Positions 3,282 through 64,000 are shown, counted from the first letter of the stretch. The stretch: 64,000 nt of DNA from a bacterium (GCA_021782205.1 JAJXVH010000009.1:3432-67431); one strand, 5' to 3'. Numbers and translations are program-made. The notes: generated by a model not told the origin, from the letters alone.

Positions 3282-3302
3282 CGGTTTTTTAACGACGACA
3301 AC

Positions 3303-3331: not shown

Positions 3332-3338
3332 CGGACCA

Positions 3339-3515
3339 GTGGCGAGGGATGTTCACGGGCGTATAAGAGGAAAGCGCGGTCAGACCGCGGTGGAGTATCT
3401 GCTGACCACGGTGCTGCTGGCCGGGCTGTTTGCGGGGATGTTCGGCGTGCTGCAAGGTGCCTTGAAGAAGCTGTTCATTGCGGGGGGGCTCGTGATCTTG
3501 ACCCCTCGCCAGTAG
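3339..3515 (+). CDS. flp: Flp-family type IVb pilin (copy 1)
   Basis: Prepilin motif KRG/QTAVEYLL followed by a hydrophobic helix (TTVLLAGLFAGMFGVL). The start is uncertain. The track's TTG 3303 lies inside the -35 box, and the next in-frame start is GTG 3339, 7 nt after the -10. Confidence 0.6.
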   Translation: MARDVHGRIRGKRGQTAVEYLLTTVLLAGLFAGMFGVLQGALKKLFIAGGLVILTPRQ

Positions 3516-5062: not shown

Positions 5063-5084
5063 GAATGGGGAAAGGCGCGACAAC

Positions 5085-5837: not shown

Positions 5838-5841
5838 CGGC

Positions 5842-9695: not shown

Positions 9696-9696
9696 C

Positions 9697-28845: not shown

Positions 28846-28871
28846 AAATCCGGTAAAGGCAAGAGCTTGCC

Positions 28872-28901
28872 TTGACAAATTCTCGCGTCGGGGGCTACAC
28901 T
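28872..28901 (+). promoter_or_regulatory. Sigma70-like promoter: TTGACA, N18, TACACT; ATG 5 nt downstream (leaderless)
   Basis: -35 at 28872-28877, -10 at 28896-28901, ATG at 28907. Confidence 0.55.
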
Positions 28902-28906
28902 CGAAA

Positions 28907-30025: not shown

Positions 30026-30043
30026 ATATTGAGGAGAGAATTT

Positions 30044-31681: not shown

Positions 31682-31706
31682 AAAATAGTAATTGGGACGG
31701 CTTTTC

Positions 31707-31735
31707 TTGACAGCGGGAGAGTGTCGGGCTACACT
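31707..31735 (+). promoter_or_regulatory. Sigma70-like promoter: TTGACA, N17, TACACT
   Basis: -35 at 31707-31712 and -10 at 31730-31735. A leader of about 45 nt carries CAGGAG before ATG 31787. Confidence 0.55.
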
Positions 31736-31786
31736 CCGTTGTAGATTCAAAAATGATTTTGGAGTTCGAATTTCAGGAGCGACGCC

Positions 31787-33286: not shown

Positions 33287-33299
33287 CGGAGGCGGGGCC

Positions 33300-34931: not shown

Positions 34932-34966
34932 ACGCGTAAAAAGGCGGTAAAGGCGACCGGCCGTGG

Positions 34967-34995
34967 TTGACAAAGCGGAGGCCGGCCGCTACACT
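34967..34995 (+). promoter_or_regulatory. Sigma70-like promoter: TTGACA, N17, TACACT
   Basis: -35 at 34967-34972, -10 at 34990-34995, ATG at 35018. Confidence 0.55.
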
Positions 34996-35017
34996 GGGCA
35001 AGTCGCGCAATTGAGCC

Positions 35018-36472: not shown

Positions 36473-36496
36473 TGCTTTAATTCAGGAGAAACCCCC

Positions 36497-39121: not shown

Positions 39122-39192
39122 GACTTTAGACCCAGGCGCGATGGAGGACGAAGAGCTATATTGACGCACAGGAAGCAGTTCTGGAGAACGCC

Positions 39193-47900: not shown

Positions 47901-49953
47901 AGATCCGACCATGCCCGGGCACCAGGCCGACGGGCTGTTCTGGAATTTGTTCACGTCCGCGCTGAATCCTGAGGGCCTGGGCGGACGCGGCTCCTGGGTG
48001 CGCCTGGAGCTCAAGCGACAGCTCGACGGCTTCTTCGAGGACCCGGCCGGAATCCGCCTGGACAACCGCACCGGCCGCATCAACGTCGTCCACAACGGCC
48101 AGTGGTTCGAGTCGATGGACAACGAGACGCGCCGCTATTGGGAACTGGCCTACGGCACCGACCTGACCTTGCCCTACACGCACCAGTCCATCAGCACCAT
48201 CAAGGACCTGACCACGGACAAAGAGACGAACTTCATCTCCTTCTCGGGCACGGCGGGCGACAAGCTGCGCGAGCACTTCAAGAAGAACGACATCATGATG
48301 GTGGGCCAAGGCTCCACGCCGCCGCCGAACGTGGGCGTGGAGCTGACGGCACGGCCGGTGGACAGCTATGCGCGCATCGGGCGCGCGCTGGCCGACCTGG
48401 ATTCGGCGCGCGGCCAGGTGGTGGTGCCGGACTTGAAGCAGGCGCCGCTGGAAGTGCGCGAGGCGCTGGTCGACCGCGCCGGCGGCGTTCTGCCCAAGCC
48501 GGTGGAACTGCGCTTGGACGCTTTCGCGGGCGAGGGGGCCGCCGCGGACCGGGCCTGGCTTGAGCAGCACGGCCGTTCCGCCAGCGACGGCGCGGTCGCG
48601 CTCGGCGACGTCAAGGGCGCCCCGGAGGACGTGCGCCTGGCCGCGCTCGACGCGTTGAGCGGGCCGGCGACGCTGACGTTGTCCGATTTCGCCCGGCAGG
48701 CCGAGGGCGCCGCCGCCCACGACGACCCGCGCGCCGGCGTCTACGAGAAGGCCCTGGGTCAACTGCGCGATTTGCGCGCCGGCACCGGCGACGCCGACGG
48801 CGTGGTCCTGCGCGTCGCCGCCGATGGAGCCGTCCCCGCCGATGAGATTCCCGCCGACGTCCGGCCCACGATCGACGCCTACCTGTCCAATCCGAAGTTC
48901 AAGGGCAAGGACTCCGTCGTGGTGCGCGTCTCCGACGTGCGCGGCAAGACCGCCGCGGACACCGCCGCGGCCCGCCAGTGGCTGCTGGACCTGCGCCGGA
49001 CCGTGAGCGTCAATCCCGGCGATATTCCCGAAGGCGCGCGCCCCGCGCTCGAAAAATACCTCTCCGCGCCGCGTTACAAGGGCGTCAAGGCACCCGTGGT
49101 GCGCGTGGCCGACGTGCGCGCCGGCGACGGCGTCAGCGAGGCGCAGGCCGAGGCCGCGCGCGCCTGGCTGAGGACGCAGCCCGACTCCCAGGAGTCCGGC
49201 CTGATGGTCTTGAGCGTCTCCGACACGCGCGTGCTCAAGACCGTGCGCGACTACTTGATCCGCGTGAAGGGCCTCAAGCCCGACGAGATAGCGATGGTCT
49301 TCTCGGACACCGAATATCTGCGCAACAACGTGCCCGAGGCGCGCGTGGCCGAGCAGATGAACCTGGGCGCGCTGGACACGGGCCGCGCGCGCGTCTTGAT
49401 CCTGGACACGCGCGTGGGCGGCCGCGGCCTGGACCTGAACTTCAAGGGCCAGCGCGGCAGCGCCGTGCCGGAGGCCTTCCGCGGCTACACCGATTTCGAG
49501 ATGCTGATCGTCGACCCGCACAAGATGTCCTCGGTCCACCTCCTGCAGGCCGAGGGCCGCATCGACGTGGGCCGCGTTCTGCCCAACGCCGACCGGTCCT
49601 TCTCCCTGGTCATGGACATGGACTCCGTGGCCGGCTACCGGGTGTTCCGCGACATGCTGGCCAAGGATCCGTTCTTCACTCAACTGCGCGCCGACCCGCG
49701 CTTCGTCGCCTTCGTCAAGGCGCGCGGCGGAGTTCCGGACTGGGCCGCTTGCGACGCCTACGTCCGCCTGCGCGCCGCCCAGGGCGGCGACGAGGGCGCG
49801 GCCCTGGCCGCCGACTACGCCGCCGCCGTGAAGAAAGCGCTCGACATCCAGCAGGCCCAGGTCGAGGAGGGCCAACTGCGCTCTTCCTCGGTGCTCAACG
49901 ACGGACGGCCGACCACCAACGGGCTGTTCCCCGGCATCGAAGGGCTGAAGTAG
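41971..49953 (+). CDS. Giant (2660 aa) signal-peptide protein containing a split SecA-like DEAD/SF2 ATPase motor
   Basis: Signal peptide MNRLARRLLAVSVAAALASGSWPAAAFAD. NBD1-like VFQMLKTGGGKTFVAFEGLLPLVEADAQATGKKVAFLTVQSNLEAQARMDF and YWILGDEMDGAAMQPALTIG (46040-46380). NBD2-like RVLILDTRVGGRGLDLNFKG, MLIVDPHKMSSVHLLQAEGRIDVGR, RSFSLVMDMDS (49190-49640). Confidence 0.8.
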   Translation: MNRLARRLLAVSVAAALASGSWPAAAFADTTSSVSPAQALAQMKAWGVYQGDGDVLKSYLGDSHKLTPIGQAIYDALSPRDNPVDAAAALQPTLQTLRGNGPYTPTSAKAAAKLIGTVQQQIAGLPAPADPAAASAEDEFRRGALAQAALSGAAVVDPPNAASMVRVQTPDGTEFYDKKGDLVYVMNAAQTTTYNRALQKQQHAMNQAPQVGAPFVPETGRYNRQMFDYSYAAVDNQYNALMDGLRRDRMIELADLLGKTGQYRDDMWFTDKTLEADLIAQAKKKTYSSGGKTYSVYDIVEADFRARAKYLAQARADIDAYKRDVAALLGSLSKNPVVSDGAVKSLALDEQVARVALTRAVLETQEYYVKNQENRLDPSSPDSKQLMDALEKLNVPLQMKVLYKQRGRDMIAQLQQVRAQLDRVRLLLDKTDPSASLDTANALLTASQTTLGTISTDYSIYVEVPTVASLTQEQTGVGVVDKGIAWAAHKLGAQAPGMNWSYWLYGRVDGGYRANMNTLAADTPKFQAIMGQIAGGDMAGARRAVIAMNPDAASTHFSAALFGDQPKRVTDDVKIAASLTANRDRIVSVFTTNKWIDTGRSLVEWSVAIGLGGGVAARGLTGLAKGLDATGLTVAGEDAGVMRQVLARTSIITREVALHTAARLTTLQSESSLAMTGRIENGAVRYLAESGVRTLNAAARQATFTAMSSGISGGFMLGQHLYQDATGGHSVYTSDLSGAAQAVWTGAKGGAWWANESWHPMLNYVGVPSSAFAGTRLAAAMDVLGSRGVVDTAWSGLGGLASWVMPTAVKLAGEDSALAGAMTQANSVLWPAVEGGAGKGLIDRLAEQGVAGKIAAFPLSMADNVAKYALVSDAASGIGHWVAYNAPSVSLPGVGQVTWGSSADVETRIKGANQTGQELMNAPIWLALPTFSAHAALEAAPFMGGAEGMRQYDAAGRTHEYANAESGQELPFLETPKTPISQRVFDFHFFRDPPNGKWTVTEQARRQGIEKTMFEAAGGKNADPLVFQSITKMADGELFARRLKVNDEVRLLAHKNFIRALLDDPARAKAILEAKPGEIVDGVGRITPEIQKDVAVALYSSDIQIGKAMPRSLSASVDKVLKPYLEANLITREPARELDAALRRLKPRDAFSGDNGVLAKIRDDVSEWRVKGEPEGVGYKDYLEGLRARVKQWETDGTVTPPEADVLAKLVDYVEAIDQRFNSFNSVEKAYALADESLQALITEFRTRPAPASLLNSFQTKLENWKKGRRPDEPVAGKTADGSFGRLIAGLREDLQSAQGLTSEEHTKIVRAIDDMEASPWALHDAKGTALKGWRPEQFEALMGALTAFVARRPMGSVRVFQMLKTGGGKTFVAFEGLLPLVEADAQATGKKVAFLTVQSNLEAQARMDFIAYKKIGSKLTFETYESLKTKAAEGKTKGRSALRDYWILGDEMDGAAMQPALTIGQVSGRVSRLSPFYARADALDLSVQSRIDSAASSLGMRAQTAAGRAQLLTANVPGLDAAAVKAGFDRLDEASGRLAQADGPLDRFLAETDVRDAAAGLQGLLSSPSASGLDAQALAQARGALSDVTASLDAPADDASLRGGVLEQLTGNLRRESNLLDLGGGEDGLLRLTRDAAVRSVELGARIDSLNAQADAAQGSSAPGASSRAQALRDEAALLGREKAMTDRFQAVDAGRRLSGLQDRVAAAEAGPEAQRPVALADWKAKAAELENSLPADLQPVARRRAAALARSYEIGGRAAEVDDALIAARRDGGDTAGLEARKQALESDYSAVRAEESRLKGELGRGSESGDLGGLLRRIETLPREGPGARERARLIDKARAQVRRNLSEIGDEIAAIVREGQRGWEDRARRLMEERRALLKSFAGDENPMYSVFRAMKEDMQSFAISNQLRSQDPAEYKAAQKRFDKLVDGERLGVGETLNLLWSLLRGREPDIPVARLGLTRLRAIQLLRALSEDPTMPGHQADGLFWNLFTSALNPEGLGGRGSWVRLELKRQLDGFFEDPAGIRLDNRTGRINVVHNGQWFESMDNETRRYWELAYGTDLTLPYTHQSISTIKDLTTDKETNFISFSGTAGDKLREHFKKNDIMMVGQGSTPPPNVGVELTARPVDSYARIGRALADLDSARGQVVVPDLKQAPLEVREALVDRAGGVLPKPVELRLDAFAGEGAAADRAWLEQHGRSASDGAVALGDVKGAPEDVRLAALDALSGPATLTLSDFARQAEGAAAHDDPRAGVYEKALGQLRDLRAGTGDADGVVLRVAADGAVPADEIPADVRPTIDAYLSNPKFKGKDSVVVRVSDVRGKTAADTAAARQWLLDLRRTVSVNPGDIPEGARPALEKYLSAPRYKGVKAPVVRVADVRAGDGVSEAQAEAARAWLRTQPDSQESGLMVLSVSDTRVLKTVRDYLIRVKGLKPDEIAMVFSDTEYLRNNVPEARVAEQMNLGALDTGRARVLILDTRVGGRGLDLNFKGQRGSAVPEAFRGYTDFEMLIVDPHKMSSVHLLQAEGRIDVGRVLPNADRSFSLVMDMDSVAGYRVFRDMLAKDPFFTQLRADPRFVAFVKARGGVPDWAACDAYVRLRAAQGGDEGAALAADYAAAVKKALDIQQAQVEEGQLRSSSVLNDGRPTTNGLFPGIEGLK
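48410..49190 (+). repeat. Four tandem protein-level repeats of about 55-65 aa inside the giant SecA-like ORF
   Basis: IPADVRPTIDAYLSNPKFKGKDSVVVRVSDVRGKTAADTAAARQWLLDL versus IPEGARPALEKYLSAPRYKGVKAPVVRVADVRAGDGVSEAQAEAARAWLRTQ. Two more divergent copies lie upstream (APLEVREALVDRAGG...ADRAWLEQ; APEDVRLAALDAL...). Confidence 0.5.
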
Positions 49954-51521: not shown

Positions 51522-52553
51522 ATGGACCAGCTTCGCGACGTGCGGCGGCGCCTGCTGGGGGTCGCGTCCCTGCTGGTCGCGTGCCTGATCACGGGCACGC
51601 TCGGCTACCGGCTGGTCGAGGGCTGGAGCCTGTTCGACGGGCTCTACATGACGGTGATCACTTTGGCCACGGTCGGTTACGGCGAGACGCACCCGCTGTC
51701 GACGGCCGGCCGGGCCTTCACGATGCTGTTGATCCTGGGCGGCATCGGCGTGGTCGCCTACGCTTTCTCCACGATCACGGCCATCGTCGTGGAAGGGGAA
51801 CTCACCAAGGCGCTGCGCAGGAGGCGTATGGACAAGAACATTGCCGGGCTGGAAGGGCACTTCATCGTGTGCGGCGCGGGACACACCGGCGGCGTCATCT
51901 GCGCGGAACTGCTCAAGACCGGGCGTCAGTTCGTGGTCGTCGACCGCGACGCGTCGGCCATCGACCGCCTGGTCGCGCGGCTGGGCGCGGACGTGCCGCG
52001 GCTGGTCGGCGACGGCTCCGAGGACGAGGTCCTGCGCCGCGCCGGCATCGAGCGCGCCGCGGGCGTGTTCGCGGTGCTGGCCACCGACCAGGACAACGCG
52101 TTCGTGGTCCTGAGCGCCAAGGGCCTCAACCCGAAGGCGCGCGTGCTGGCCTGCCAGAAGACCATCGGCGTGCGCGACAAGCTTCTGCGCAGCGGCGCCG
52201 ACGGCGTGGTCGACCCGGAGTTCATCGGCGGCATGCGCCTGGCCTCGGAGATGATCCGGCCGGCCACCGTTGGTTTCCTCGACGCGATGCTGCGCGAGCG
52301 CAGCGTGCACGTGCGCTTCGACGAGATCGTCGTGGGCGAAGGCTCGCCCGCCGTGGGCCGCTCCGTTGATGAGCTGCGCGGCTCGGGCGCGGGCCCGCTG
52401 CTGGTCGCGGTCGTGGCCGCGTCCTCGGATAATTACGAGATCAATCCGCCGCCGCGGCGCCTGGTGCGCGCGGGAGATCGCCTGGTGCTGATCGGCGAAA
52501 CCGCGGCGCTGCAGGCGCTGCGCGAGCGGCTGGCGCAATCCCAACACCATTAA
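51522..52553 (+). CDS. Two-TM K+ channel with cytoplasmic RCK (TrkA-N/TrkA-C) domains (MthK-like)
   Basis: Selectivity filter TLATVGYGETHP. Rossmann motif HFIVCGAGHTGGVICAELLKTGRQFVVVDRD. C-terminal TrkA-C-like region. Confidence 0.8.
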   Translation: MDQLRDVRRRLLGVASLLVACLITGTLGYRLVEGWSLFDGLYMTVITLATVGYGETHPLSTAGRAFTMLLILGGIGVVAYAFSTITAIVVEGELTKALRRRRMDKNIAGLEGHFIVCGAGHTGGVICAELLKTGRQFVVVDRDASAIDRLVARLGADVPRLVGDGSEDEVLRRAGIERAAGVFAVLATDQDNAFVVLSAKGLNPKARVLACQKTIGVRDKLLRSGADGVVDPEFIGGMRLASEMIRPATVGFLDAMLRERSVHVRFDEIVVGEGSPAVGRSVDELRGSGAGPLLVAVVAASSDNYEINPPPRRLVRAGDRLVLIGETAALQALRERLAQSQHH

Positions 52554-52593: not shown

Positions 52594-53493
52594 ATGGGAA
52601 GACCGCAGAGAATACAATTCGCCGGGGCCTGCTATCTGGTCGCGCTGCAGGGCAACAATCGCCAGGACCTGTTCGTTTCCAACCAGGACCGCCGCCTGTT
52701 CCTGGCCCAACTGAAGGCCTACAAGGAACGTTTCGCTCTCAAGGTCTACGCCTACAGCCTGCTCGGCCGCTCGGCCAGCCTCCTCTTCGAGACCACGCGG
52801 CCCAACTTGTCGGCCGCCATGCAGGGCCTGAACACGCAATACACGAAGTCTTTCAACGCCGCGCACGGCACCGTCGGGCACGTGTTCCAGGGCCGCTACA
52901 AGGCCTGGGTCGTGGACAAGGACACGCACCTGGCGGAGATGACGCGCTGGGTCCACCTGGAATGCGCGCGCGAGGGCCTCTTGGACAAGCCTTGGCGCTA
53001 CCAGTGGTCGTCGTGCGCCGCCTACGTCGAGGCCCAGCACAAGGATCCCCTGGTGGACTCCGCCGCCGTCCTGCAGAATTTCGGCCACGCGCGTCTGAAG
53101 CAGTCGGTGCGCTACCTGCAATACCTCCAGGAGCGTCCGGCCTCGGCTCAAGACAGCCTGCCCGTCGTCGGCGGCGTGGCCATCGGCGGGCCCGAGTTCC
53201 TGGACCGCGTCGGCGCGTGGCGCGCCACACCGGCCCAGCGTCCCGTGCCCGTGGAGGCCGCGCGCCGGATCATCGCCGAGGTCGCCACCCGACGCGGGAT
53301 CAGCGAAGAGAAGATCCTGGGCCGCGTGCAGTGGCGCGAGGTGTCCTCCGTGCGCCGCGAGGCCGTCCACCGGGTCTGGCGCGAGACGCGCATGGGCGTG
53401 ACCGAGCTGGCGCGCCTGTTCCAGCGCACGCCCAGCGCCATCAGCCAAACCCTCCGCGCGCTGGAAGATTCGCGCCCTTCTTCAATGAATTGA
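52594..53493 (+). CDS. IS200/RAYT-like (COG1943-type) Y1-transposase homolog with a degenerate HUH motif, fused to a DnaA-C-like HTH
   Basis: The overall pattern matches the family (RPQRIQFAGACY...RQDLF...VYAYSLL...GHVFQGRYKAWVV...WRYQWSS). The expected N-H-x-H-LL is GRSASLL, and Y-I-H-x-NP is WVHLEC. C-terminal RETRMGVTELARLFQRTPSAISQTLRAL. Confidence 0.65.
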   Translation: MGRPQRIQFAGACYLVALQGNNRQDLFVSNQDRRLFLAQLKAYKERFALKVYAYSLLGRSASLLFETTRPNLSAAMQGLNTQYTKSFNAAHGTVGHVFQGRYKAWVVDKDTHLAEMTRWVHLECAREGLLDKPWRYQWSSCAAYVEAQHKDPLVDSAAVLQNFGHARLKQSVRYLQYLQERPASAQDSLPVVGGVAIGGPEFLDRVGAWRATPAQRPVPVEAARRIIAEVATRRGISEEKILGRVQWREVSSVRREAVHRVWRETRMGVTELARLFQRTPSAISQTLRALEDSRPSSMN

Positions 53494-53503: not shown

Positions 53504-53591
53504 CGAGGGCCCTTAGTCCCAGGTCCCCGGGGGCCGTTTTCCCTGTCTTTTTCAGGCTTTCGGGGGCGTGCATTATTGGCGTACCGGAGCT

Positions 53592-56500
53592 ATGCTTCCG
53601 GTAATGAACCCGCGCCCGAAGCGAGGGGGGTGGACGCGTGCGGCGGCGGCCGTCGTCTCGGCTGCCGTGCTCATGACGTCGTTCGGCCCGGGGGCCGCGG
53701 CCGTCGCGGCGGAAATCGACCTGGACCGGCCCGTCGACGCCGCGCCCGCCGCGGGCTCCGCCCTTCCCGTCTTGCCGCCGGCGGCCGCGTCGCTGGCGCC
53801 GGCGCTGTCCGTCGCGTCGTTGGGCGCGCTTTCTCCGGCGTTGTCCGCGCCCGCTCCGGTGCCCGCCGCGGCGGCGCTGGGCGGGCATGACCGGCCGGTC
53901 GCCGTCGTCGCCGTCCCCAGCCTTCTGCCGGCTCCCGCGCCCGCCCTGGTTGCCGCGCCCGCCGCGGCGCTCTCGGCACCGGCCGACGAGGGGCCGATGT
54001 CCCGCGCGAGCGCCTGGTTGCGCGCCGCGACCGGACGCGCCGCGGCGCCCGGCGCCGTTCAGGTTCCGGACGCGGCCGCAGGGGCTTCCGCCGCCGCCGC
54101 GAAGTCCGCCGCCGACGCCTCCTTCCGGCGCCTGACCGGCGAGCAGTTCGCGCGCGAGGACGGCGACGTCTCCGACCCCGCCGCGATCGTGTCCGTGCGG
54201 CCCGAATCCGAGACGACGCGGCTTTCGGCCGCGTCGTCGGCGCGTCCGGGGGCGGGGCCGTCCGCGAGCGTTCCGCCCGCGCCGAGCGGCGCGAAAAGCG
54301 AAACTCCGAAATACCTGAGCGAGGATTTCCTCGGTTTCCGCACCGTGCGCGGCTTGACGCGCGCGCCGGGGCTGGGCCGCCTTCCGCGCGACGCGGACGC
54401 GGCGCGCGTGGTCGACCAGATCGCGGGCCAGTTCGGCCTGCCCCGTCGCGAGGTGCTGGAGCTGGCGCGCGGCTTCGGCCTGGATGAGACCAGCCCGCGC
54501 GAGAGCTGGCTGTCCGTCTACGACCGCCTGCAGGCGGTCAACCGCGACCACTTCAAGCGCCTGGACTCGCACAAATACAACGGGTTCGCGAGCTTCCGAG
54601 AGTTGACGAACTGGTCCTACGCGCCGGGCCTGCGCGGCGTCGGCGAGCGTCTGCTGGAAGTCCACAAGCTCTTTCTGGGCGTCGCGGTGCGCTTCCCGTA
54701 TCACCTGTTCGACATGTTCGTGTTCGGCTATTTCCGTCAGGCGATCTCCTTCGAGTTCTTCCACTCGGGCGAGGATTTCCTCGGCCTGTCGAAGGAGCCG
54801 GATCTGGCGCGTAAATGGCTGGAGGCGTCGTTGCGCCGTGAGCGCCTGCGCGGTCCCGGAACTTTGGGCCGCCTGCGCGCGCGCGCCTGGTTTCGCGAGA
54901 TCGAGCGCTGGTTCTTGACCCCGCTGGCGCGGCCGCTGGCCACGTTCCTGGCGCGCCGCCTGACGCTGGCGGTGCTGAGCGCCGTCGCCATGGGCCTTCT
55001 CGGCGCGTTCGCGCCGGTTCTGCCGCTTTCCTTTGCTCTGACCTCTATCCCGCTCCTCGGACCCGCGCTGATCTGGGGCCTCAACGGCCTGCCTGTCGTC
55101 GTCGGCGCCACGCCGCTGGTCGGCCATCTGCTGGCGCCCGTCGTGGCGGCCGCGGCGGGGGGCTTGGCGCGCGACTTGGTGGTGGGCCCCCTGCTCAACA
55201 CCATGATCCTCTCGACTTTGTTGACCTTCCCGGCCAGCGCGCGCGACGCGATCGCAAAAATCCGCGACCGCCACCCGTTGACCGACCTGACCGCCCGGGA
55301 GTGGCTGCACGCCATCGCCGGCACGGCGCTCTCGCGCGCCTTCTGGAGCGCCAACCTCAAGTCCTTCGTGGGCCTGGCGACCGTCGGCGCGGAGATCTCC
55401 GGCATCATGACCTACGCGGGGCAAATCGACGCCTCGATCAACCCCGCCTATCACGCCGTCACCGGCGGTCAGTTCCACCTGTTCGAGGCTGTGGGCTCCG
55501 CCGTGGAGCGGCCCAAGGGCCAGAGCGTGATCCCGTTCGGCGGCGCGATCACGTGGGGCAGCACCTTGCTCTTTAAATTGCAGGAGGTCAGCGGCCTCCA
55601 CATCTCCGACGCGGTCATGGGCGCGGCTCTGACCGTCAAGAGCGGCCTGGGCTTCGAGGACGCCGCGCACGTGGGCGAGGCGCGGGCCCCGGCGCAGGCG
55701 CTGGTGAGCGCGGCCGAGGCGCGCCCGGACTCGAAGATGCCTTTCGACGCCGATCTTTGGAAAAGCTCTCCGGCCGACGCGCTGGCGCGAATCCGGTCGC
55801 TGGCGGCGGGGGCGGGCGGTCTTTCGGCGGAGACCGCGGCGGTGGAGGCGCGCATGACCGCACTGCGCGCCAAGCTCGGCGACGCGGCGGCGCAGGAGGC
55901 CGCGCTGAAGGCGCAAAGCCGGCCGATCACGGCGGCGGAGCGCGCGCAGTACGCGGCACTCCTGCGCGAACTGGCGGCCAAGCGCGACGAGGCCTACGTA
56001 CAGGCCAAGCTCTCTGAAAAGCGCGACATCACCAACCCGACCGCCGCCGACCTGTCCGACCTGCGGCGGCTGAAGGCCCTGAGCGACCGCTACGGCCCGC
56101 TTCTGCCTCCGCCGCCGACGGACAAGGACGGCACGCCCGACGAGATGGCCGCGCGCGAGGCGGCCTACAAGGCTCTGGCCGCGCGCATCGACGGTGTACT
56201 CCATGGAGGAACGGGCGGCGTTGCGGGCCCGACCGTGACGCCGCGGCTCAGCCCGGACAAGGAAGCGGCGATCCAAGGTATGGTCGACCGCATTTATAAA
56301 GAACGCGAGCAGGTGAAGGCCGAACTGGCCCAGCGCGACGCGACTCAAGCCCTGCTCGCCGCGTCCAACCGTATCCGCAACCACGCGCTGGCGGATCGCC
56401 GCAACGGCCAGGGCATGATGCAGTTCCACACGGACTTCGCCAAGCTCGACAGCGTCGTCGACCTGGCTCTCTCGCTCAACGAGATCTCCGCCGCCGAGGC

Positions 56501-59500
56501 GGCGATCGCCAAGATGCAGGGCCTGCTCCAGCAGAGGACGACCGCGATCAACAGTTCGGCCGCGCAGAACCAGCAGAACCTGGCCGCCAACAACGCGACC
56601 GCCGCCCAGCAGGCCCAGTGGCAGCAGCAGGCCCAGCAGGCCGTCACGCTGGATCAGGCGTCCCAGAAGAGCTTGGCGGGCCTGCAGACCGAGGCCGCCA
56701 CCGCCACGCAGAACATCGGCCAGTTCCAGCAGACGATCGGCGGCTTTATTTCCGAGGTCAACGCTCAGGACAAAGGCCAAAGCGCCACCGCCGCGGCCGA
56801 ATACGCGCGCCGTCTGGCCCTTCTGCCCCAGGCCGCGCAGTGGGCGACGAGCGGCAACCCCAACGATCCGTCGGCGTTCTCGTTGTCCGGCTTCCAAGCC
56901 GACCTGACCGAGGTCAACTCGGCGCTGAGCCAGGCGCAGGCGGGCCTGGCCAAGATCCCGACCGTGCCGGTGGAGTTCGCGGGCGCGCTGGTCATCGCGG
57001 TGCCGGGCTCCGCCCCGGGGCAGCCGAATCCGACCGTGAGCAATCCGACGAAGGCCGAGGTGCTCCAGATCCTTTCCCAACGGCAGGCGGGCTGGCAAAA
57101 AGAACTGGCCACGAAACAGTCGTTTCTGACCCAGGTCAACCAGATGATGGACCCCAACTACACGGGCACGACGACCGACGCCTTCGGCGACGTCAACCCG
57201 GTGTCCTTGCCGCGCTGGCTGGCGCAGACGCAGACGGACCTGAGCGCCAAGCAGACGGCGGCCCAGCAACTGCTCGCCCAGTTGGACGCGACCGCCGCGC
57301 AGATCAACAAGGCCGCCGGTTCCAGCATCCCCATGCTGTCCGGGATGTCTTTGACGCAGTTGCAGACGGCCATCCAGAACTACGGCACCACCTTGGAGAG
57401 CGTCCAGTTCCCCAACGACGGCTCGGTGGCCACCTTCCAGGCCAAGATGGCGCTGATCACGGCGGCGCAGAACGTCCCGTTGGCCGCGCGCGCGATCGTC
57501 CAGTGGTCGCAGGACCAGGCGACCGTCACCGCGATCCAGACCGCGATGTCGACGACCTTGCCCAAGGTCCAGCAGTCCCTGCAGGGCTTGGTCAACATGG
57601 AGCAGGCGATTTTGGCCGATATCCAGGTCGATGTGAATTTCGTCAACACCGGCCAGGGCGGCGGCCAGGCGCTGATCGACCGCAAGACCGCGCTCCTGCA
57701 GAACACCATCATCCCGGCCCTGCAGAACGCCCAGCAGATGATCACCGGGACCTTGATCCCTTATCAGCAGAGCAGCGTCGCCTCCTACGCGGCCAACAGC
57801 AACGGCTCCTACTATACGCTGTTCACGGCCGAGCAGAACCTGCTGACCCAGACCAACAATCTCTACAACAACACGATCCCGTGGGCCGTCGTCACGCAGG
57901 GCGCGCCAACGGGCAACGCCGCGGCCGCGCACGCCAACATCGCCTCGTTCCGCCAGACCTTGCAGAACTACATGACCGGCTACACGGATTCAGCCGGCCA
58001 GCACGAAGGCATCACGCAGTACCTGCAGGACATGAAGGACCGCCAATGCACGTCCGGCTGCACGCGCACCGAGACGCTCTACGGCGAGGTTCAGCCCTAC
58101 AGCCTGCCGATGAAGATCACGCAGTATAACGCGGAAGAGGCCCAGCGCGCGACGCAGATCAACACCGAAGACGCCCAGATCAATCAGATCCTGACCCAGA
58201 TACAGACGTTGTCGAACGGGAAATACAATTTGCAGGCCTACATGCTGCCCGTCGGCGTGGGCGCCGACGCGGGCAGCGTGGCCAAGATGAACGCCATCGT
58301 CAACGCGAGCTTGATCCCGAACCTGGGCACCGAACTGCAGACCATCGCCAAGGCCGCCCAGGCCGCCGCGGGCTCGACGTCGATTTCCGTCGGCGCGGGC
58401 AGCGGCGGCGCGGTGCCGGTCGGCAAGCAGCCCTCGCCGACGATCTCGACCGACCAGCAGATCTCGATTCTGGCCCTGAACGCGGCCCAGCGCCTGGTGC
58501 CTTCCAGCATCGCCCAGCCCGCGGGTGCTCCGGCCGCCTACGCGGTCGCGCGCTACCTCTACGCCAACTCGGTGGTCACGGCCGCGCAGTCGGCGCTGAC
58601 CAGCCAGGTTCCGCAGGCGGTCGCGTTCCTGAACACGGCGTCCCAATCGCTGGGGGCCGCGATCGCCGACACGCAGATCGACGACGCCTATGTGAACTCG
58701 AACGGCACGAACGCGACTCCGGCCGCCGTCTACGCGCGCAAGACCGCGATCTACAGCCAGCTCAACGGCTTCCTCCAGCAGGCCGACGCGTTCTACGCGA
58801 TGAAGACCGGCTGGGACCAGCAGGCGTTCGGCACGCTGAACTCGGTGCAGACGTATTACAACTCGTTGGGCACGATCTACTCCAACGGCTCGGCGGTCAA
58901 CCAGAACGAGCTCACCGAGATCAACACGATGTCGCAGGCGCTGGCCACGACCCTGAGCGGCCTGCAGGCCACGCAGGCGAAGGTGCTGTCCTGGATGTCC
59001 CAGCTCGACCCGGCCCAGCAAAGCGCCCTGCGCAACGTCGCCGACGACGTGTCGAGGCTCCAGGACCAGACCAAGGCCGTCCTCGACGCCAACATCAACT
59101 GGCACCAGCTCGAAAACGACCTGTCGCGGTCGCAGCAGATCGTGCAGGCCGACCTGACCGGCGTCGACTCCGATCAGCAGAAGCTCACGCAGCTGCTGAC
59201 CGACCCCGCCGTCCAGGGCTCCCTGCCGCCGGACCTGGTGCGCCGCATCGAGGCCCTGCGCCTGGGCCAGGGCGGCGGCGCCTGGGCCATGGGCGGCGGC
59301 GACGGCGGGGCGACGCAGGCGATCGTGATCAAGAAGTCGGATTTCTCGTCCTTCCTCGATGCGATGCTGGGGATGGTCACGCAGAACTCGCAGAACATCG
59401 CCAATCAGGATATCTCCTCTCTCAAGAGCAGCCTGCTCTCCGACCCGGCGAACATTTCAAACTTCATCCCCGGCGCCAGCATCATGCAGTTCGGCGACAA

Positions 59501-62500
59501 CGCCGACGGCTTCTACCTGGTCTACCAGTCGAACTTCTCGGTGCCCAACGGTCTGCAGACCGGCACCTGGGCGACGCTGGGCAACGTCGCCCACGTCTGG
59601 GGCAACAACATCAGCGTCAACAGCTACGAGTTCACCAGCCCTCCCAGCGCCGGCGGCCAGAACGCGCCTTTCGGCGACAAGGGCGTGGAAGTCCAGGTCG
59701 AGTCCTTGCAGGGCCAGAACTGGGTCAACTACCTGAACGTTGACCTGCATCGTTTCGGCTTCGACATTCCGACCACGAACACCATCGGCTCCACGCTGAG
59801 CCCGTCGCGCCTGATGATCTTCGACGACTACGCGGTGATGCTGCTCAACAACAAGCTCTACGTGGGCCTGGCCGGCTACGGCGACGTCGCCGCCAACCAG
59901 CCGGGACAAAATCCTTACTTCTACGGCGGCAACCTCAAGACCTCGTTCAAGCTCAACGACGTGATGAGCCTGGACGCGTCCCAGCAGGCCTTGTTCATCA
60001 AGGATCCGCGCACGTTCTTGGAAACCGCGAATCTCAATTTCACGGGCTTCGACCCCAGCCTGAACCAGGACTTCCAGATTTCGGCCAACGGCGACAACAA
60101 ATACTACTCGCGCACGCAGATCGGCCCCACGTTCGACGTCAATCGGCTTCTCGGCAACGATACCGGCGACTCCTTTACCGTCAGCATGTACTACGCCAAC
60201 ACGCGCGGCACCGACGACATCCAGCAGCAGTCGCTGGGCACCACGATCGTCAAGGGCATCTCGATCAAGAACGACCAGGGCAAGACCTGGCTGCAGATCA
60301 ACAACAGCCTGACCGCCGAGGCGGGCCAGCAGGCCAATACCTTGGGCGACCAGATCGCGTTCACCTTGCCGGACAAGGGCATCACCTTGAGCGGCCAAGG
60401 ACAGATCATCGGCGGGGCGAGCACGTATTACGCCCAGTTGTCCAAGAAGCTCAGCGACAATTCCTCGGTCGACCTCGGCTACGGCTCCCAATACATCGGC
60501 ATGGGCAACCGCCTGTCGCTGACCATGAATACCTCTTTCACGCTCGCCCAACTGTGGCAGGCGGTGGCCGACCACGCGCATCAGGAACTTCAGGGCGGCC
60601 GGACCTTGGCGGCCTTCGACAAGGACATGACCGACTTCTTCGGTCCCAACGCGAAGGATGCCTCGCCGACGGTGCAGGCTCTAAGCCAGGTCTACGCGGC
60701 CGACGTCGCGCGCAAGCTGATCACGCAGGACATGGGCGGCCTGACCAGCGACATCGACGACCTGCGCAAGGCCGGCGCGTTCATGGACAACACGCGCACG
60801 CGCGGCATGATCGGCTTCGTCTCGCGCGCGGTCGACAACACCACCGCCGACCTGGCCGTCGGCGGCGGCCCGACCGTGGGCACGTACACGGAGATGACGT
60901 TGACCAAGACGCAGAAGACGCTGATCGAGGACAAGACTCTTTCTCTGACTCAGGAGGGTCTTAAGCTCCAGGATCGGCTCATCGCGCTGACCAAGGAATG
61001 GCAGTCGGACGTGGCCGCGCTTGCCGAGGCGCAATGGGACCTGCGCCTGGCCGACTACGAGGTGCGCAACGCGCCCAACGACGCCGTGCGCGCCGATGCG
61101 CGCGTGCGCCTCTCCGAAGCGCTGGACCGCTACAACCAGACGCTCGCGCGCTACAACGCGCTGGCCGGACGCGATCCGACGGCGGCTTCGCCGTTCGCCC
61201 AGCTCAACGCGGCCGACCTCCAACAGTTGATGGGCAACATCCGCGCGCTCGTCTCCGCGCCCGACCGCCTGACCAAGATCCTGGGCACGCTCAATCCCGA
61301 CGCGCTGCGCAAGGACGTCGGCGCCGTTCCGTTCAACGTGATGAACTGGCTGCCGTGGGTCGACCGATTGTCGGCCGGCTTCGGCGTGCAGTATCAGGAC
61401 ATGATGAACAATCAGGTGCTGACCATGGGCGTGTCGATGCGCCTGCCCATTTATGATCCTTCCTCCAAAGCCGCCGACCATTCCTATGTTTTGGAAAGCC
61501 AGGCGACCAACTTGGAGATCGATCAGCTTTACGCCGACCGCAACGTCCAGCGCCAGGCCGACCTGGACCGCGCGCGCGCCTGGCAGGCCGCCTCCGACGC
61601 GGCCGCGCCCCAAGGTCCGGCCGCGGCCGCGCGCCTGGGCGACGCGATCCGAGCCTACCGCAACGGATTGATCGGTCCCGACGGCCTGCGCCATGCGTTC
61701 GACGCGTGGCGCTGGTACGCGCAGACCGCGCTCGACGCCAGCGCCAACGCCTCCGTCGCCGCCGCCGCGGCCGCCATTGAGGAACCCGCTTCGCAGCACC
61801 AGCCCCTCCTGCCCTCCGGGCCTGCCCGCATCGCCTCGTTCGACGACGCCTACGCGTTGGCCGTCGCCGACTCCAAGAACCTGGGCGCGCTCGCCGACCG
61901 CGCGCAGGCGGCCGAGGAGATGGCGCGCTCTCAAGAGCACCGCATTCAGAAGGCGTGGCTGGACCTCAACGTCGGCGTCGGCCTGACGGATTCGGGACTG
62001 GGCTGGATACCGCAGATCGCGATCACCGGCATTCCGGTGACGCCGGTGTTCGGCTTCGAGTTCAAGCCCGAGGAGCTGCGCGAGCTGCAGGTAAGCCAGC
62101 ACGACCAGCAGGAGGCGTATTACCAGGCGCTCCAGGCCAGCCTGAAGACCGGCCTGGCCGTGCAGTTCTATCAAGAAGTCGTCGCCTACCGCACGGCGCA
62201 GAACGCCGTCGGTCTCTACGACTCGCGCGTGCTGCCGGCGCTGGCCGCGGCCGCCGCGGCGGGGGGCGCGGACGCGGCGCAGAAGCTCGATGATGCGCGC
62301 GTCAAGCGCGGGCTGGCCCTCTCCGCGCAGAACGCGGCCGCCGCGCAGTTGAACTTCCTTTTGGGCCGCGCCGCCGGGGCGCCTCTGGAAATCGACATGG
62401 ACCCGGTCCAGGCGCTGGCCGCGCTCAAGGCCTTGGTCGAGGCGCAGAGCCCCGTCGTCACGCAGACGCGCGTGCTGGACGCGCGCGTCGCCGTGGCGCG

Positions 62501-64000
62501 CGCCGTCGAGCAGATGGTCGACAAGAACCTGAAGGTCCAGGTGCTCCAGCTGGAGCCGGTGTCGATCGTGGTGCGGGCGTTCACGCGCCTGATCGGCGCC
62601 CTCGGCGACGGGCCGGTCTACGATCCCGACAAGGCCGCCGCCGCGCGCATCAAAACGTTGACGGCGGAGCGCGCGCTGGCGGCCCTGCCCGCTCAGGTGG
62701 CCGACCAGCGCTCGCGCCTGCAGCAGCGTCTGGCCGACGACCAGGCCCGGCTCGCGGCGCTGGCCGGCTCCCGCGACCCGTCGGCGGCGGTGACCGCCGC
62801 CGAGCTCCAGGGCGACATCCTCAAGGAACGGGCCGGCCTCTACGCGCTCTATGACCCCTCGGCCCCGTCCGCCGCGGCCGCCGTCAACGCGCCGACGCCG
62901 CCGTCGAACTGGGCCCAACTGCAGGCCGAACTGGGGCGCTCCGAGCAGGCCTTGGCGCCCGCCGCCCCGAGCGCGCCTCCCGACATTCCGTCGCCCGTCG
63001 TGACCGAGGGCAACTCGTCGGCGTACGCGCGCTACGACTACGCCAAGCAGACCTTGGGCGAAGTTCCGATCAACAAGCACTTCGTCGAGGGCTGGATCGA
63101 GGTGCGTCTGCGCGATCCCAGCACTCCGCCTAATGTCCTTCTCGCCCTGTCGCGCCTGCGCGACCAGAAGGCGGCGCGCATCTATCAGACCGAACTGGCC
63201 GGCGCGCAGGTGAACGCCGGAGTTTTGGCCGCGCAGTTCCAAACCGACGTGGGCCTGGAGCGCTGGGCCGAAGCGCAGCTGCGGGCGCGCGGATTCTCGC
63301 CGGTGCCGCCGGCCGCGGCGCGGCCCGGCGACCCGGCTCGCCCCGCCGAGCTTGACGCCCTGCGCGCCAGCGCCGCCGCGCGCGTGGCCGGGGAAGCCGA
63401 CCGGATCGCCGCCCTGCTGGGCCTTGCCCCCTCGGCCGCGGCCGGGCTGGCCGCGCTCGTGCCGCAGGACGCGACGCCGGCCGCCGACCCCGCCGACATG
63501 GCGGCGACCTTGATCAAGAACATCCAGACGCGCGAGGTCGGCATCATCCAGCAGACCCTTTTCTCCGACGGCGGTCTGCCCGCCGGCTTCGGCGCCGAGG
63601 ACGGCCTGATGGGGCAGATCCGCGCCAACACCATCGCCGAGCGCATGAGCTACAAGGGCTTCACGCCCGTGCTCGCCAGCGGATTGTTCCAGGGCCAGAG
63701 CATTTCCGGCGTTTTCCTGGAGGCCCCGGACCCCCGCGACATTCAGAAAGGGCTGGAGAGCATCATGTCGGACGTCCTGCGCAAGCAGTTGGAGTCCGAC
63801 GGGCGCATACAGCAGCTGTCGCTCCAGTTGAATCTGCTGATGACCCAGGTGCAGGACGGCGAACGCGAACTGCAGGCGCGCAGCGCGCAGATCCAGGCCG
63901 ACGAGGCCGACCTGCGCGCGCGCACGGCGCTCATCGACCAGCCCGGCGGGGCGGCCGCGCTGGCCGCGTCCCAGCAGAGGCTGGCCCAGGCGTGGTCCGA
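53592..64000 (+). CDS. Giant protein (at least 3469 aa, 3' partial): signal-like N-terminus, TM cluster, Gln/Ala-rich coiled-coil region, beta-rich module, TolC/OMF-like repeats
   Basis: The reading frame of positions divisible by 3 is open from TAG 53514-53516 to the window end; I spot-checked about 35 sequence lines by hand. The ORF is absent from the supplied track. See findings for motifs. Confidence 0.8.
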   Translation, partial: MLPVMNPRPKRGGWTRAAAAVVSAAVLMTSFGPGAAAVAAEIDLDRPVDAAPAAGSALPVLPPAAASLAPALSVASLGALSPALSAPAPVPAAAALGGHDRPVAVVAVPSLLPAPAPALVAAPAAALSAPADEGPMSRASAWLRAATGRAAAPGAVQVPDAAAGASAAAAKSAADASFRRLTGEQFAREDGDVSDPAAIVSVRPESETTRLSAASSARPGAGPSASVPPAPSGAKSETPKYLSEDFLGFRTVRGLTRAPGLGRLPRDADAARVVDQIAGQFGLPRREVLELARGFGLDETSPRESWLSVYDRLQAVNRDHFKRLDSHKYNGFASFRELTNWSYAPGLRGVGERLLEVHKLFLGVAVRFPYHLFDMFVFGYFRQAISFEFFHSGEDFLGLSKEPDLARKWLEASLRRERLRGPGTLGRLRARAWFREIERWFLTPLARPLATFLARRLTLAVLSAVAMGLLGAFAPVLPLSFALTSIPLLGPALIWGLNGLPVVVGATPLVGHLLAPVVAAAAGGLARDLVVGPLLNTMILSTLLTFPASARDAIAKIRDRHPLTDLTAREWLHAIAGTALSRAFWSANLKSFVGLATVGAEISGIMTYAGQIDASINPAYHAVTGGQFHLFEAVGSAVERPKGQSVIPFGGAITWGSTLLFKLQEVSGLHISDAVMGAALTVKSGLGFEDAAHVGEARAPAQALVSAAEARPDSKMPFDADLWKSSPADALARIRSLAAGAGGLSAETAAVEARMTALRAKLGDAAAQEAALKAQSRPITAAERAQYAALLRELAAKRDEAYVQAKLSEKRDITNPTAADLSDLRRLKALSDRYGPLLPPPPTDKDGTPDEMAAREAAYKALAARIDGVLHGGTGGVAGPTVTPRLSPDKEAAIQGMVDRIYKEREQVKAELAQRDATQALLAASNRIRNHALADRRNGQGMMQFHTDFAKLDSVVDLALSLNEISAAEAAIAKMQGLLQQRTTAINSSAAQNQQNLAANNATAAQQAQWQQQAQQAVTLDQASQKSLAGLQTEAATATQNIGQFQQTIGGFISEVNAQDKGQSATAAAEYARRLALLPQAAQWATSGNPNDPSAFSLSGFQADLTEVNSALSQAQAGLAKIPTVPVEFAGALVIAVPGSAPGQPNPTVSNPTKAEVLQILSQRQAGWQKELATKQSFLTQVNQMMDPNYTGTTTDAFGDVNPVSLPRWLAQTQTDLSAKQTAAQQLLAQLDATAAQINKAAGSSIPMLSGMSLTQLQTAIQNYGTTLESVQFPNDGSVATFQAKMALITAAQNVPLAARAIVQWSQDQATVTAIQTAMSTTLPKVQQSLQGLVNMEQAILADIQVDVNFVNTGQGGGQALIDRKTALLQNTIIPALQNAQQMITGTLIPYQQSSVASYAANSNGSYYTLFTAEQNLLTQTNNLYNNTIPWAVVTQGAPTGNAAAAHANIASFRQTLQNYMTGYTDSAGQHEGITQYLQDMKDRQCTSGCTRTETLYGEVQPYSLPMKITQYNAEEAQRATQINTEDAQINQILTQIQTLSNGKYNLQAYMLPVGVGADAGSVAKMNAIVNASLIPNLGTELQTIAKAAQAAAGSTSISVGAGSGGAVPVGKQPSPTISTDQQISILALNAAQRLVPSSIAQPAGAPAAYAVARYLYANSVVTAAQSALTSQVPQAVAFLNTASQSLGAAIADTQIDDAYVNSNGTNATPAAVYARKTAIYSQLNGFLQQADAFYAMKTGWDQQAFGTLNSVQTYYNSLGTIYSNGSAVNQNELTEINTMSQALATTLSGLQATQAKVLSWMSQLDPAQQSALRNVADDVSRLQDQTKAVLDANINWHQLENDLSRSQQIVQADLTGVDSDQQKLTQLLTDPAVQGSLPPDLVRRIEALRLGQGGGAWAMGGGDGGATQAIVIKKSDFSSFLDAMLGMVTQNSQNIANQDISSLKSSLLSDPANISNFIPGASIMQFGDNADGFYLVYQSNFSVPNGLQTGTWATLGNVAHVWGNNISVNSYEFTSPPSAGGQNAPFGDKGVEVQVESLQGQNWVNYLNVDLHRFGFDIPTTNTIGSTLSPSRLMIFDDYAVMLLNNKLYVGLAGYGDVAANQPGQNPYFYGGNLKTSFKLNDVMSLDASQQALFIKDPRTFLETANLNFTGFDPSLNQDFQISANGDNKYYSRTQIGPTFDVNRLLGNDTGDSFTVSMYYANTRGTDDIQQQSLGTTIVKGISIKNDQGKTWLQINNSLTAEAGQQANTLGDQIAFTLPDKGITLSGQGQIIGGASTYYAQLSKKLSDNSSVDLGYGSQYIGMGNRLSLTMNTSFTLAQLWQAVADHAHQELQGGRTLAAFDKDMTDFFGPNAKDASPTVQALSQVYAADVARKLITQDMGGLTSDIDDLRKAGAFMDNTRTRGMIGFVSRAVDNTTADLAVGGGPTVGTYTEMTLTKTQKTLIEDKTLSLTQEGLKLQDRLIALTKEWQSDVAALAEAQWDLRLADYEVRNAPNDAVRADARVRLSEALDRYNQTLARYNALAGRDPTAASPFAQLNAADLQQLMGNIRALVSAPDRLTKILGTLNPDALRKDVGAVPFNVMNWLPWVDRLSAGFGVQYQDMMNNQVLTMGVSMRLPIYDPSSKAADHSYVLESQATNLEIDQLYADRNVQRQADLDRARAWQAASDAAAPQGPAAAARLGDAIRAYRNGLIGPDGLRHAFDAWRWYAQTALDASANASVAAAAAAIEEPASQHQPLLPSGPARIASFDDAYALAVADSKNLGALADRAQAAEEMARSQEHRIQKAWLDLNVGVGLTDSGLGWIPQIAITGIPVTPVFGFEFKPEELRELQVSQHDQQEAYYQALQASLKTGLAVQFYQEVVAYRTAQNAVGLYDSRVLPALAAAAAAGGADAAQKLDDARVKRGLALSAQNAAAAQLNFLLGRAAGAPLEIDMDPVQALAALKALVEAQSPVVTQTRVLDARVAVARAVEQMVDKNLKVQVLQLEPVSIVVRAFTRLIGALGDGPVYDPDKAAAARIKTLTAERALAALPAQVADQRSRLQQRLADDQARLAALAGSRDPSAAVTAAELQGDILKERAGLYALYDPSAPSAAAAVNAPTPPSNWAQLQAELGRSEQALAPAAPSAPPDIPSPVVTEGNSSAYARYDYAKQTLGEVPINKHFVEGWIEVRLRDPSTPPNVLLALSRLRDQKAARIYQTELAGAQVNAGVLAAQFQTDVGLERWAEAQLRARGFSPVPPAAARPGDPARPAELDALRASAAARVAGEADRIAALLGLAPSAAAGLAALVPQDATPAADPADMAATLIKNIQTREVGIIQQTLFSDGGLPAGFGAEDGLMGQIRANTIAERMSYKGFTPVLASGLFQGQSISGVFLEAPDPRDIQKGLESIMSDVLRKQLESDGRIQQLSLQLNLLMTQVQDGERELQARSAQIQADEADLRARTALIDQPGGAAALAASQQRLAQAWS

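Follow-up and report, generated by a model that had tools for sequence, protein, structure and literature searches.

The window analysed here is a stretch of 64,000 nucleotides from the genome of an Elusimicrobiota bacterium (GCA_021782205.1, JAJXVH010000009.1:3432-67431), and it ends inside a giant open reading frame (ORF) on the plus strand that is a real, constrained gene and belongs to a conserved family. On balance, this gene probably encodes a giant cell-envelope protein of about 4,800 amino acids (aa), specific to the Elusimicrobiota lineage, the core of which is a highly divergent module of the type found in TolC and related outer-membrane factors (OMFs). Residues of the protein are given the prefix W and are counted from ATG 53592, and all features listed with coordinates below lie on the plus strand.

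A giant gene conserved in Elusimicrobiota

The plus frame is free of stop codons from 53517 to 64000, where the window ends, a run of 3,494 codons. The 5' part of the giant ORF (53592-64000) comprises 3,469 codons from ATG 53592 with no stop inside the window; GTG 53568 and ATG 53604 are alternative in-frame starts, and it is the equivalent of ATG 53604 that serves as the start of P0016, the closest full-length relative. The chance of 3,494 random codons being stop-free is about 1e-33 at about 68% GC, as calculated from base frequencies. GC-rich DNA often holds long ORFs, and the length of the giant ORF alone is therefore little proof. The GC content of the ORF is 0.91 at codon position 3, as against 0.49 at position 2. 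When the window is compared with L003, a 91%-identical ortholog, differences at codon positions 1, 2 and 3 number 277, 119 and 721, respectively, and the codon changes divide into 668 that are synonymous and 294 that are non-synonymous. Residue W 3469 aligns with residue 3471 of the 4,785 residues of P0016, and by this alignment the window lacks about 1,300 codons at the C-terminal end of the gene.

A scan of reference genomes identified the ortholog as one unbroken frame in three Elusimicrobiota contigs from metagenome-assembled genomes, which were assembled independently from short reads with MEGAHIT. The frame comprises 4,379 codons in L003, where it runs off its contig, and 4,912 and 4,996 codons in L004 and L005, in both of which a stop is present. 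The ORFs of L004 and L005 reach the start of the fetched locus, and these proteins may be longer still. The giant region is annotated as several genes in L001 (a 3.8-Mb chromosome) and L002, both of which are long-read assemblies. Searching with tblastn reveals a single collinear sequence there that switches frame at abutting points, and for this reason we read the switches as assembly indels, not as boundaries of separate genes. Orthologs share 40-68% identity, almost without gaps over more than 4,000 residues.

When 1.84 billion representatives were searched exhaustively with HMMER, the family came to 110 representatives at the 50% clustering level, 34 of them at least 3,300 aa long, and the core family ranges in length from 3,357 to 5,940 aa. 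Named members are “hypothetical proteins” of Elusimicrobiota. The distant member P0071 bears the automated NCBI label “TolC family protein”, and P0105 (Omnitrophota, 6,932 aa) shares the beta-rich module only (profile positions 19-316).

An earlier note on this DNA, made from the sequence alone, had reported an unterminated plus frame from 53517 to the window end and three candidate starts, all of which are found as given. It had remarked that the frame was missing from the ORF track, which is explained by the lister omitting ORFs that run past the window end; the listing contains the antisense shadows that it mentioned, with 1594, 371, 374 and 853 aa. Every peptide string that it quoted occurs at its place in the translation, and the compositions of the modules match too. 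Its proposal of a giant gene is borne out by the single-frame orthologs, the size of the family and the third-position bias of the substitutions, and the ortholog search that it suggested has recovered both the family and its conserved neighbours.

Predicted structures resemble TolC-type outer-membrane factors

The TolC-like alpha/beta region of the protein extends over W 2336-3469 (60597-63998) and appears to consist of six repeats of the OEP type, about 193 aa each, the sixth being cut by the window end. Two AlphaFold models were made of this part of the chain. Model 1 covers W 1934-3133 and was built from a 15-sequence alignment (mean pLDDT 49.7, pTM 0.37), and model 2 covers W 2318-3469, without the beta-rich module (mean pLDDT 55.2, pTM 0.42). 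Beyond W ~3190 the alignment for model 2 consists of the window sequence alone, and a profile search with the conserved W 3300-3425 alignment found just an 85-aa fragment. Searching with W 2934-3469 brought up low-complexity candidates in large numbers and no hits.

In model 1, every beta-hairpin leads into a helix of 48-63 residues and then a return helix, and the helices are the part modelled with most confidence. When this model was compared with the PDB using Foldseek, the top 38 matches were all TolC-type factors (E 1.8e-8 to 5e-3, probability 1.00), namely ST50, TolC, SilC, CusC, VceC, CmeC, OprN, OprM, OprJ and TOprJ1. They extend over 375-490 columns of targets that are 402-493 residues long, and small outer-membrane barrels rank next. 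The result for model 2 is similar, in that the top 39 matches are all TolC-type factors, followed by a sharp fall to probabilities of 0.35 or below. Against a viral library, which is without TolC-type factors, the helical part matches nothing but coiled coils of low probability. Both models form strands at hairpin B (W 2592-2621) and at hairpin C (W 2785-2824). Since the matches are specific and are replicated across two constructs, the two low-confidence models argue for a true TolC-like protomer fold in the middle part of the protein.

A distant family member links the protein to the OEP family

Direct sequence comparisons gave a different result from the fold searches. PF02321 (OEP) has no match on the whole window protein at E <= 1, nor on eight separate chunks of it at E <= 10 (both with HMMER, subject to its filters), NCBIfam gives no OEP or TolC match on the window protein, and profile searches of the PDB with the family alignments A1, A2 and A4 found no TolC-family chain. 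In hhalign comparisons of 4- and 33-sequence family profiles with E. coli TolC and CusC, the probability was 2.7% or lower, the control comparison of TolC with CusC giving 72%. The only patch that hhalign aligned, hairpin B (MGVSMRLPIYDP) to TolC residues 291-319, is non-significant. The PF02321 and TolC sequence check that the earlier note had proposed for the window protein is thus negative throughout.

Among 11 diverse family members scanned with Pfam, OEP was found in two. In the distant member P0071 the domain is matched at 31.3 bits (E 2.3e-7; the gathering cutoff is 22), and the same site is matched more weakly in P0087 (19.3 bits) and P0082 (15.2 bits). Mapped through the family alignment, the OEP segment of P0071 corresponds to W 2752-2900 (nt 61845-62291), into which fall the strings SFDDAYALAVADSKNL... 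and QEAYYQALQASLKTGLAVQFYQEVVAYR that the earlier note had quoted. The core family and the distant subgroup are collinear over 917 columns (probability 100%, E 3e-38). NCBIfam has no match on P0071 and P0087, and the profile of the distant subgroup compared with E. coli TolC and CusC by hhalign reaches a probability of 2.3% or below. The OEP match of P0071, taken together with the alignment of the core family to the distant subgroup, therefore supports homology of the window protein to the OEP family through a transitive link, despite the window protein itself being below threshold. Searching by fold and bridging through a distant member in this way recover homology that is overlooked by Pfam, PDB-sequence and hhalign searches.

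Six apparent repeats in one chain

Model 2 carries six long helices, which start at W 2439, 2623, 2827, 3012, 3180 and 3381. Conservation in the 33-sequence alignment peaks at W 2381-2440, 2590-2629, 2803-2828, 2968-2998, 3172-3189 and 3343-3414, and each of these six peaks directly precedes one of the long helices. In the autocorrelation of conservation, peaks appear at lags 193 and 389 only, and just two of 1,000 block shuffles attain the observed value. No 193-aa period is seen in the Gln-rich or C-terminal regions of the protein, and the pattern ends after the sixth peak. OMF protomers consist of two structural repeats, with conservation at the helix ends and alpha/beta junctions (PMC8277102), and the Pfam OEP model has 187 positions, compared with the period of about 193 aa here. 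The chain thus seems, as these observations suggest, to hold six OEP-type repeats, the equivalent of three TolC protomers.

Repeat 1 (W 2381-2575, 60732-61316) has a conserved hairpin-like patch at W 2381-2440, where the conservation peak is present and strands are weak in model 1, followed by a helix of 54 aa that starts at W 2439 and by a return helix. Hairpin B (nt 61365-61454), with the sequence MGVSMRLPIYDP, belongs to repeat 2 (W 2576-2750, 61317-61841) and is followed by a 49-aa helix. Repeat 3 (W 2751-2960, 61842-62471) contains hairpin C (nt 61944-62063), which is followed by a helix of 63 aa and a return helix of 31 aa, and it includes the stretch homologous to the OEP match of P0071. 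Repeat 4 (W 2961-3140, 62472-63011) contains the conserved patch KNLKVQVLQLEPVSIVVRAF and a 46-aa helix, and its hairpin is without modelled strands. Repeat 5 (W 3141-3335, 63012-63596) includes AYARYDYAKQ...HFVEGWIEVRLRDP and a 33-aa helix, here modelled with low confidence from a single-sequence alignment. The most conserved patch, ERMSYKGFTPVLASGLFQGQSISGVFLEAPDP, is in repeat 6 (W 3336-3469, 63597-63998), where it is followed by a 65-aa helix with a pLDDT of 67-81 before the repeat is cut by the window end.

Direct similarity among the repeats can be seen in profile comparisons. Repeats 1 and 3 match over 54 columns at an offset of 399 aa (probability 78%, E 1.8e-5), a link that is found in about 30 members with a best i-E of 8.8e-5, and repeat 2 matches repeat 1 in a profile search. 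Hidden Markov models of the units connect repeats 1-3 only. With the 4-sequence profile, matches between internal repeats are non-significant, and the 33 sequences gave one credible match.

The remainder of the chain

The N-terminus, W 1-41 (53592-53714), resembles a signal peptide, with a basic n-region and an Ala/Val-rich core followed by GPGAAAVAA/E. On inspection of the sequences, the pattern S/T-x-P-G...Y-x-A-x-A-A is kept in most full-length relatives, which supports a signal peptide-like N-terminus maintained across the family. A lipoprotein-type outer-membrane factor was considered and rejected, there being no Cys near the N-terminus. An Ala/Pro-rich linker, W 42-300 (53715-54491), follows and is poorly conserved; in L004 and L005 the region is different and longer. 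In these two proteins the part before W ~229 is replaced by another, longer N-terminal part (positions 2-1483 of L004 and 2-1333 of L005), which has a weak PepSY-like match.

A conserved Arg/Phe-rich domain with no known homolog, W 301-456 (54492-54959), directly precedes a hydrophobic Pro/Gly-rich cluster, W 457-548 (54960-55235). The cluster is conserved and has room for about 3-4 membrane segments; all core members have it, it is near-invariant among orthologs, and the distant subgroup lacks it. It would presumably sit in the inner membrane. Next come a conserved region of unknown fold, W 549-950 (55236-56441), with the motif VGAEI...PFGGAITWG, and a conserved, near gap-free region of low charge that is rich in Gln, Ala, Thr, Asn and Ser, W 951-1933 (56442-59390), with no known homolog. 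Profile searches found no PDB sequence relatives of the N-terminal and Gln-rich modules. W 951-2335 as a whole is low in charge and rich in Gln, Asn, Ser and Thr, and there are only 2 Cys in all 3,469 aa. A low-charge, Gln/Asn/Ser/Thr-rich and Cys-poor composition is typical of extracytoplasmic proteins.

The most conserved part of the protein is the beta-rich module, W 1934-2335 (59391-60596), which is rich in aromatic residues, Gly, Asn and Ser and ends in ...GNRLSLTMNTSF, terminating ...TSF. Model 1 has a meander of eight long strands at W 2194-2314, with a pLDDT of 50-60. Fold searches with this low-confidence model match KdgM in the PDB (Foldseek, E 7e-3) and phage porin-like proteins in the viral library (probability 0.95-0.99). 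Intimin/invasin barrels and the PapC usher are matched weakly (E 0.26-0.31), and chunk searches gave no Pfam match. These matches weakly suggest that the module is a small, porin-like outer-membrane beta-barrel. In view of the case of P0105, giant envelope proteins of different phyla may share the beta-rich module as a mobile building block.

Full-length relatives run about 1,250 residues past the window end, and this C-terminal part has no Pfam match in them. Most core members end, within their last ~45 residues, in an F/W-W-x-W motif, a transmembrane (TM) helix and then an Arg cluster, RRR. The three-part C-terminus of F/W-W-x-W, TM helix and RRR...PA (P0016 4740-4785; L004 4881-4899) has a layout like that of C-terminal sorting signals, among which are the PEP-CTERM and LPXTG types, and no Pfam model matches this end of the relatives, which lies beyond the window.

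Of the modules described in the earlier note, the signal-like N-terminus agrees with the pattern kept in relatives, and the Gln/Ala/Asn-rich tract of about 1000 aa has the composition reported. The hydrophobic helix cluster is real and near-invariant among orthologs, its placement in the inner membrane being conjectural; for the beta-rich aromatic module the composition holds, and the support from its fold, taken from a low-confidence model, is weak. AlphaFold modelling of separate modules, which the note had suggested, was run for W 1934-3469, and TolC-type factors top both fold searches. The TolC likeness that it proposed is accordingly upheld by the fold search and by the distant-member bridge, and not by the direct sequence tests.

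Proposed architecture and its alternatives

We propose that the chain would be exported by Sec through its N-terminal signal peptide, the sequence of which is seen and the function of which is presumed. The six repeats (W ~2381-3470), each made of a beta-hairpin, a helix of 46-65 residues and a return helix, would then fold into a TolC-like beta-barrel and alpha-tunnel at the outer membrane, a fold taken from low-confidence models, with a putative repeat number and assembly. The simplest assembly would be a pseudo-trimer within one chain, because six repeats equal three TolC protomers. On weak evidence, the porin-like beta module may insert beside the duct in the outer membrane. Both ends of the chain would be anchored in the inner membrane, one by the hydrophobic cluster and the other by the C-terminal helix seen in full-length relatives, the Arg cluster of which would face the cytoplasm. 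In this way the two membranes would be bridged by a single polypeptide that has an exit duct or tether of its own, and neither an adaptor nor a pump is encoded nearby. An envelope-spanning conduit would be consistent with the C-terminal membrane anchor of full-length relatives. That one chain forms a full 12-strand, 12-helix TolC-like duct, tied to the inner membrane on both sides and serving as a self-contained conduit or tether without an adaptor, is a tentative proposal, and we would sooner doubt it than rely on it.

Several observations weigh against this architecture and against the TolC-type core itself. Both models are of low confidence, with TM-scores to TolC of 0.30-0.48 and rmsd values of 9-17 Å; hairpin A is weak, hairpins D, E and F are not formed as strands, and neither model has a closed barrel. 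The window protein and the core family are without significant OEP or TolC similarity in Pfam, PDB profile and hhalign searches. The hydrophobic cluster has Arg-rich flanks on both sides, which is awkward if the flanks are periplasmic, and a Pro/Gly content that is unusual for transmembrane helices. Both membrane anchors are missing from the distant subgroup, and inner-membrane anchoring is thus not universal in the wider family. No HlyD, ABC, RND or MFS domains were found in the scanned window ORFs or in the called genes of the orthologous loci. There are no linked adaptor or transporter genes, and hence transport activity is without support from gene context; efflux partners could be encoded elsewhere in the genome.

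The missing closed barrel could also be explained if several giant chains, for example three, assemble and their OEP-type repeats form one or more TolC-like channels between chains. In favour of assembly between chains, the outer-membrane factors characterised so far are all homotrimeric (PMC8277102; Bucl8, PMC7682875), and only two to three hairpins form strands in one chain. However, the six repeats of each chain already equal a full TolC trimer, and three such chains together would have to form either three channels or a 36-strand barrel, for which there is no precedent, so that we find such an assembly unlikely. We give somewhat less credence again to the idea that the protein is mainly a giant surface fibre or adhesin, with the TolC-like and porin-like modules serving only as outer-membrane anchor or self-export device and with the Gln/Asn/Thr-rich region, the C-terminal ~1,200 aa or both exposed on the cell exterior. 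In composition, W 951-2335 is typical of surface proteins, intimin/invasin barrels and the PapC usher are weakly matched by the beta module, inner-membrane anchors are absent from the distant subgroup, and the conserved downstream neighbour is a wall-associated LysM/FecR/Glucodextran_B protein; Bucl8 is an OMF with an extracellular extension (PMC7682875), and autotransporters are also analogous. On the other hand, the hydrophobic cluster and the C-terminal TM/Arg anchor of the core family would keep these regions at the inner membrane, and Pfam finds no Ig, cadherin or beta-helix domains of the adhesin type in the window protein and its relatives.

It is improbable, in our judgement, that the TolC likeness is an artefact of low-confidence models with long helix hairpins and that the protein is an unrelated, membrane-associated coiled-coil giant. 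The low pLDDT and pTM of both models would fit such an artefact, as would the uniformly negative direct sequence tests on the window protein and the value of at most 2.3% for the distant subgroup against TolC and CusC. Yet the two constructs match OMFs only, over near-whole protomers and with a sharp drop thereafter, the viral library as a control yields only low-probability coiled coils, the homologous segment of P0071 has an above-threshold Pfam OEP match, and the 193-aa period fits the OEP repeat length of 187 model positions. A mis-assembly, or several genes fused by sequencing error, has next to no chance of being the explanation. The region is called as several genes in L001 and L002, but at these breaks the two long-read assemblies hop from one frame to another while the positions abut and stay collinear, and one ORF is found in three short-read assemblies and in more than 30 database proteins. 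A mobile-element or viral origin was rejected, as the L001 ortholog is located in a 3.8-Mb chromosome and the viral fold search found nothing specific.

Gene neighbourhood and the rest of the window

Upstream of the giant gene are a conserved K+ channel gene (Ion_trans_2, TrkA_N and TrkA_C; 51522-52553) and a gene for a 299-aa Y1-transposase-like protein (52594-53493), which has a weak match to a DnaA_C-type helix-turn-helix and orthologs that carry Y1_Tnp matches. In L001, L002 and L003 the Y1-like gene, with 72-93% identity, directly precedes the giant gene; it may be a domesticated transposase or a regulator. The order of K+ channel, Y1-transposase-like and giant gene is conserved in the orthologous loci, where a LysM/FecR/Glucodextran_B protein is encoded downstream of the giant gene. 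Between the Y1-like gene and the giant ORF lies a terminator-like hairpin with a T-run (53528-53545), identified as a consensus match only, which suggests that the giant gene may have its own transcript start.

A second giant ORF at 41971-49953 encodes 2,660 aa with no Pfam domain and has a third-position GC content (GC3) of 0.91. Its last ~850 aa are 47-63% identical to sequence upstream of the block of K+ channel, Y1-like and giant genes in L002, a match by which the 2,660-aa ORF and the giant gene are syntenic. Neither this ORF nor the other large neighbours without Pfam domains are paralogs of the giant. It is preceded by seven consecutive same-strand ORFs (28781-41868) of 414, 550, 499, 569, 484, 874 and 891 aa, with GC3 of 0.76-0.86 and no Pfam match. 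Together, the seven ORFs and the 2,660-aa ORF make up a block of about 21 kb that can not be annotated.

The window also holds a Tad/Flp-type pilus cluster (5004-11966), consisting of a secretin (5004-5837), a CpaE-like protein and T2SSE ATPase (5842-8160), two T2SSF proteins (one ending at 9695, the other at 9697-10605) and a TPR protein (10605-11966). A candidate polymorphic toxin of 982 aa is encoded at 21046-23994 and has a CdiA-CT RNase A-like toxin domain (PF18431, E 1e-18) at its C-terminal end. At the beginning of the window, a 767-aa protein (7-2310) has matches to FlgD_ig and to CHU_C, which is like a type IX secretion signal.

Comparison with known systems

TolC-type ducts are homotrimers of subunits of about 450 aa that depend on separate adaptor and pump proteins. 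The genes for the periplasmic adaptor and for an inner-membrane ABC, RND or MFS transporter are frequently neighbours of the OMF gene. The giant protein resembles TolC-type OMFs (TolC, OprM, CusC and VceC) in the make-up of its repeat, with a beta-hairpin, a helix of ~50-65 residues and return helices, in the length of the repeat (~193 aa versus the 187 positions of PF02321), in conservation at the alpha/beta junctions and in having a probable signal peptide. In addition, whole protomers align in Foldseek (370-490 columns) and a distant member passes the OEP threshold. It is unlike these factors, the protomers of which are ~450-500 aa long with two repeats, in that the module is inside a chain of ~4,800 aa and apparently has six repeats. 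Also unlike them, the giant itself is below every sequence threshold, has no linked adaptor or pump genes, and comes with ~3,000 aa of unknown sequence in addition to a porin-like module and putative membrane anchors.

Two kinds of protein combine an OMF with other parts. Bucl8 of Burkholderia pseudomallei and B. mallei, like the giant, has an OMF and additional non-OMF sequence in one polypeptide; it is an ordinary homotrimer, has two OEP domains and a short collagen-like tail that is C-terminal and extracellular, and is encoded in an efflux-pump locus (PMC7682875). The extra parts of the giant are ten times larger, are on both sides of the module, and come without a pump locus. AMIN-OEP fusions likewise join OEP to another envelope-targeting module, in their case one small N-terminal domain on a normal two-repeat factor (PMC2572700). 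KdgM-type porins and intimin/invasin beta-domains are the best fold matches of W 1934-2335, as judged from the low-confidence model; unlike those barrels, the beta module is internal to a giant chain, and no sequence similarity to them was found.

The giants of Omnitrophota and related phyla are comparable in being very large, mostly unannotated and envelope-associated proteins of uncultivated phyla (bioRxiv 10.1101/2023.11.21.568195; PMC11573180), whereas the members of the Elusimicrobiota family are smaller (3,400-5,900 aa) and share a conserved architecture of their own. Elusimicrobia are described as rich in huge proteins in the same work, where a TolC-like module goes unmentioned (bioRxiv 10.1101/2023.11.21.568195; PMC11573180). 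Our literature searches found no description of a single-chain or giant TolC-like protein, nor of such an envelope-spanning architecture.

Elusimicrobiota have few cultured members and a poorly known envelope. The TolC-like module described here has diverged past ordinary sequence detection. If the proposed architecture is true, it would represent another way to build a link or duct between two membranes, and a natural single-chain form of a channel that is otherwise made from three subunits. It would also provide the first structural role for more than 100 “hypothetical” giants in Elusimicrobiota.

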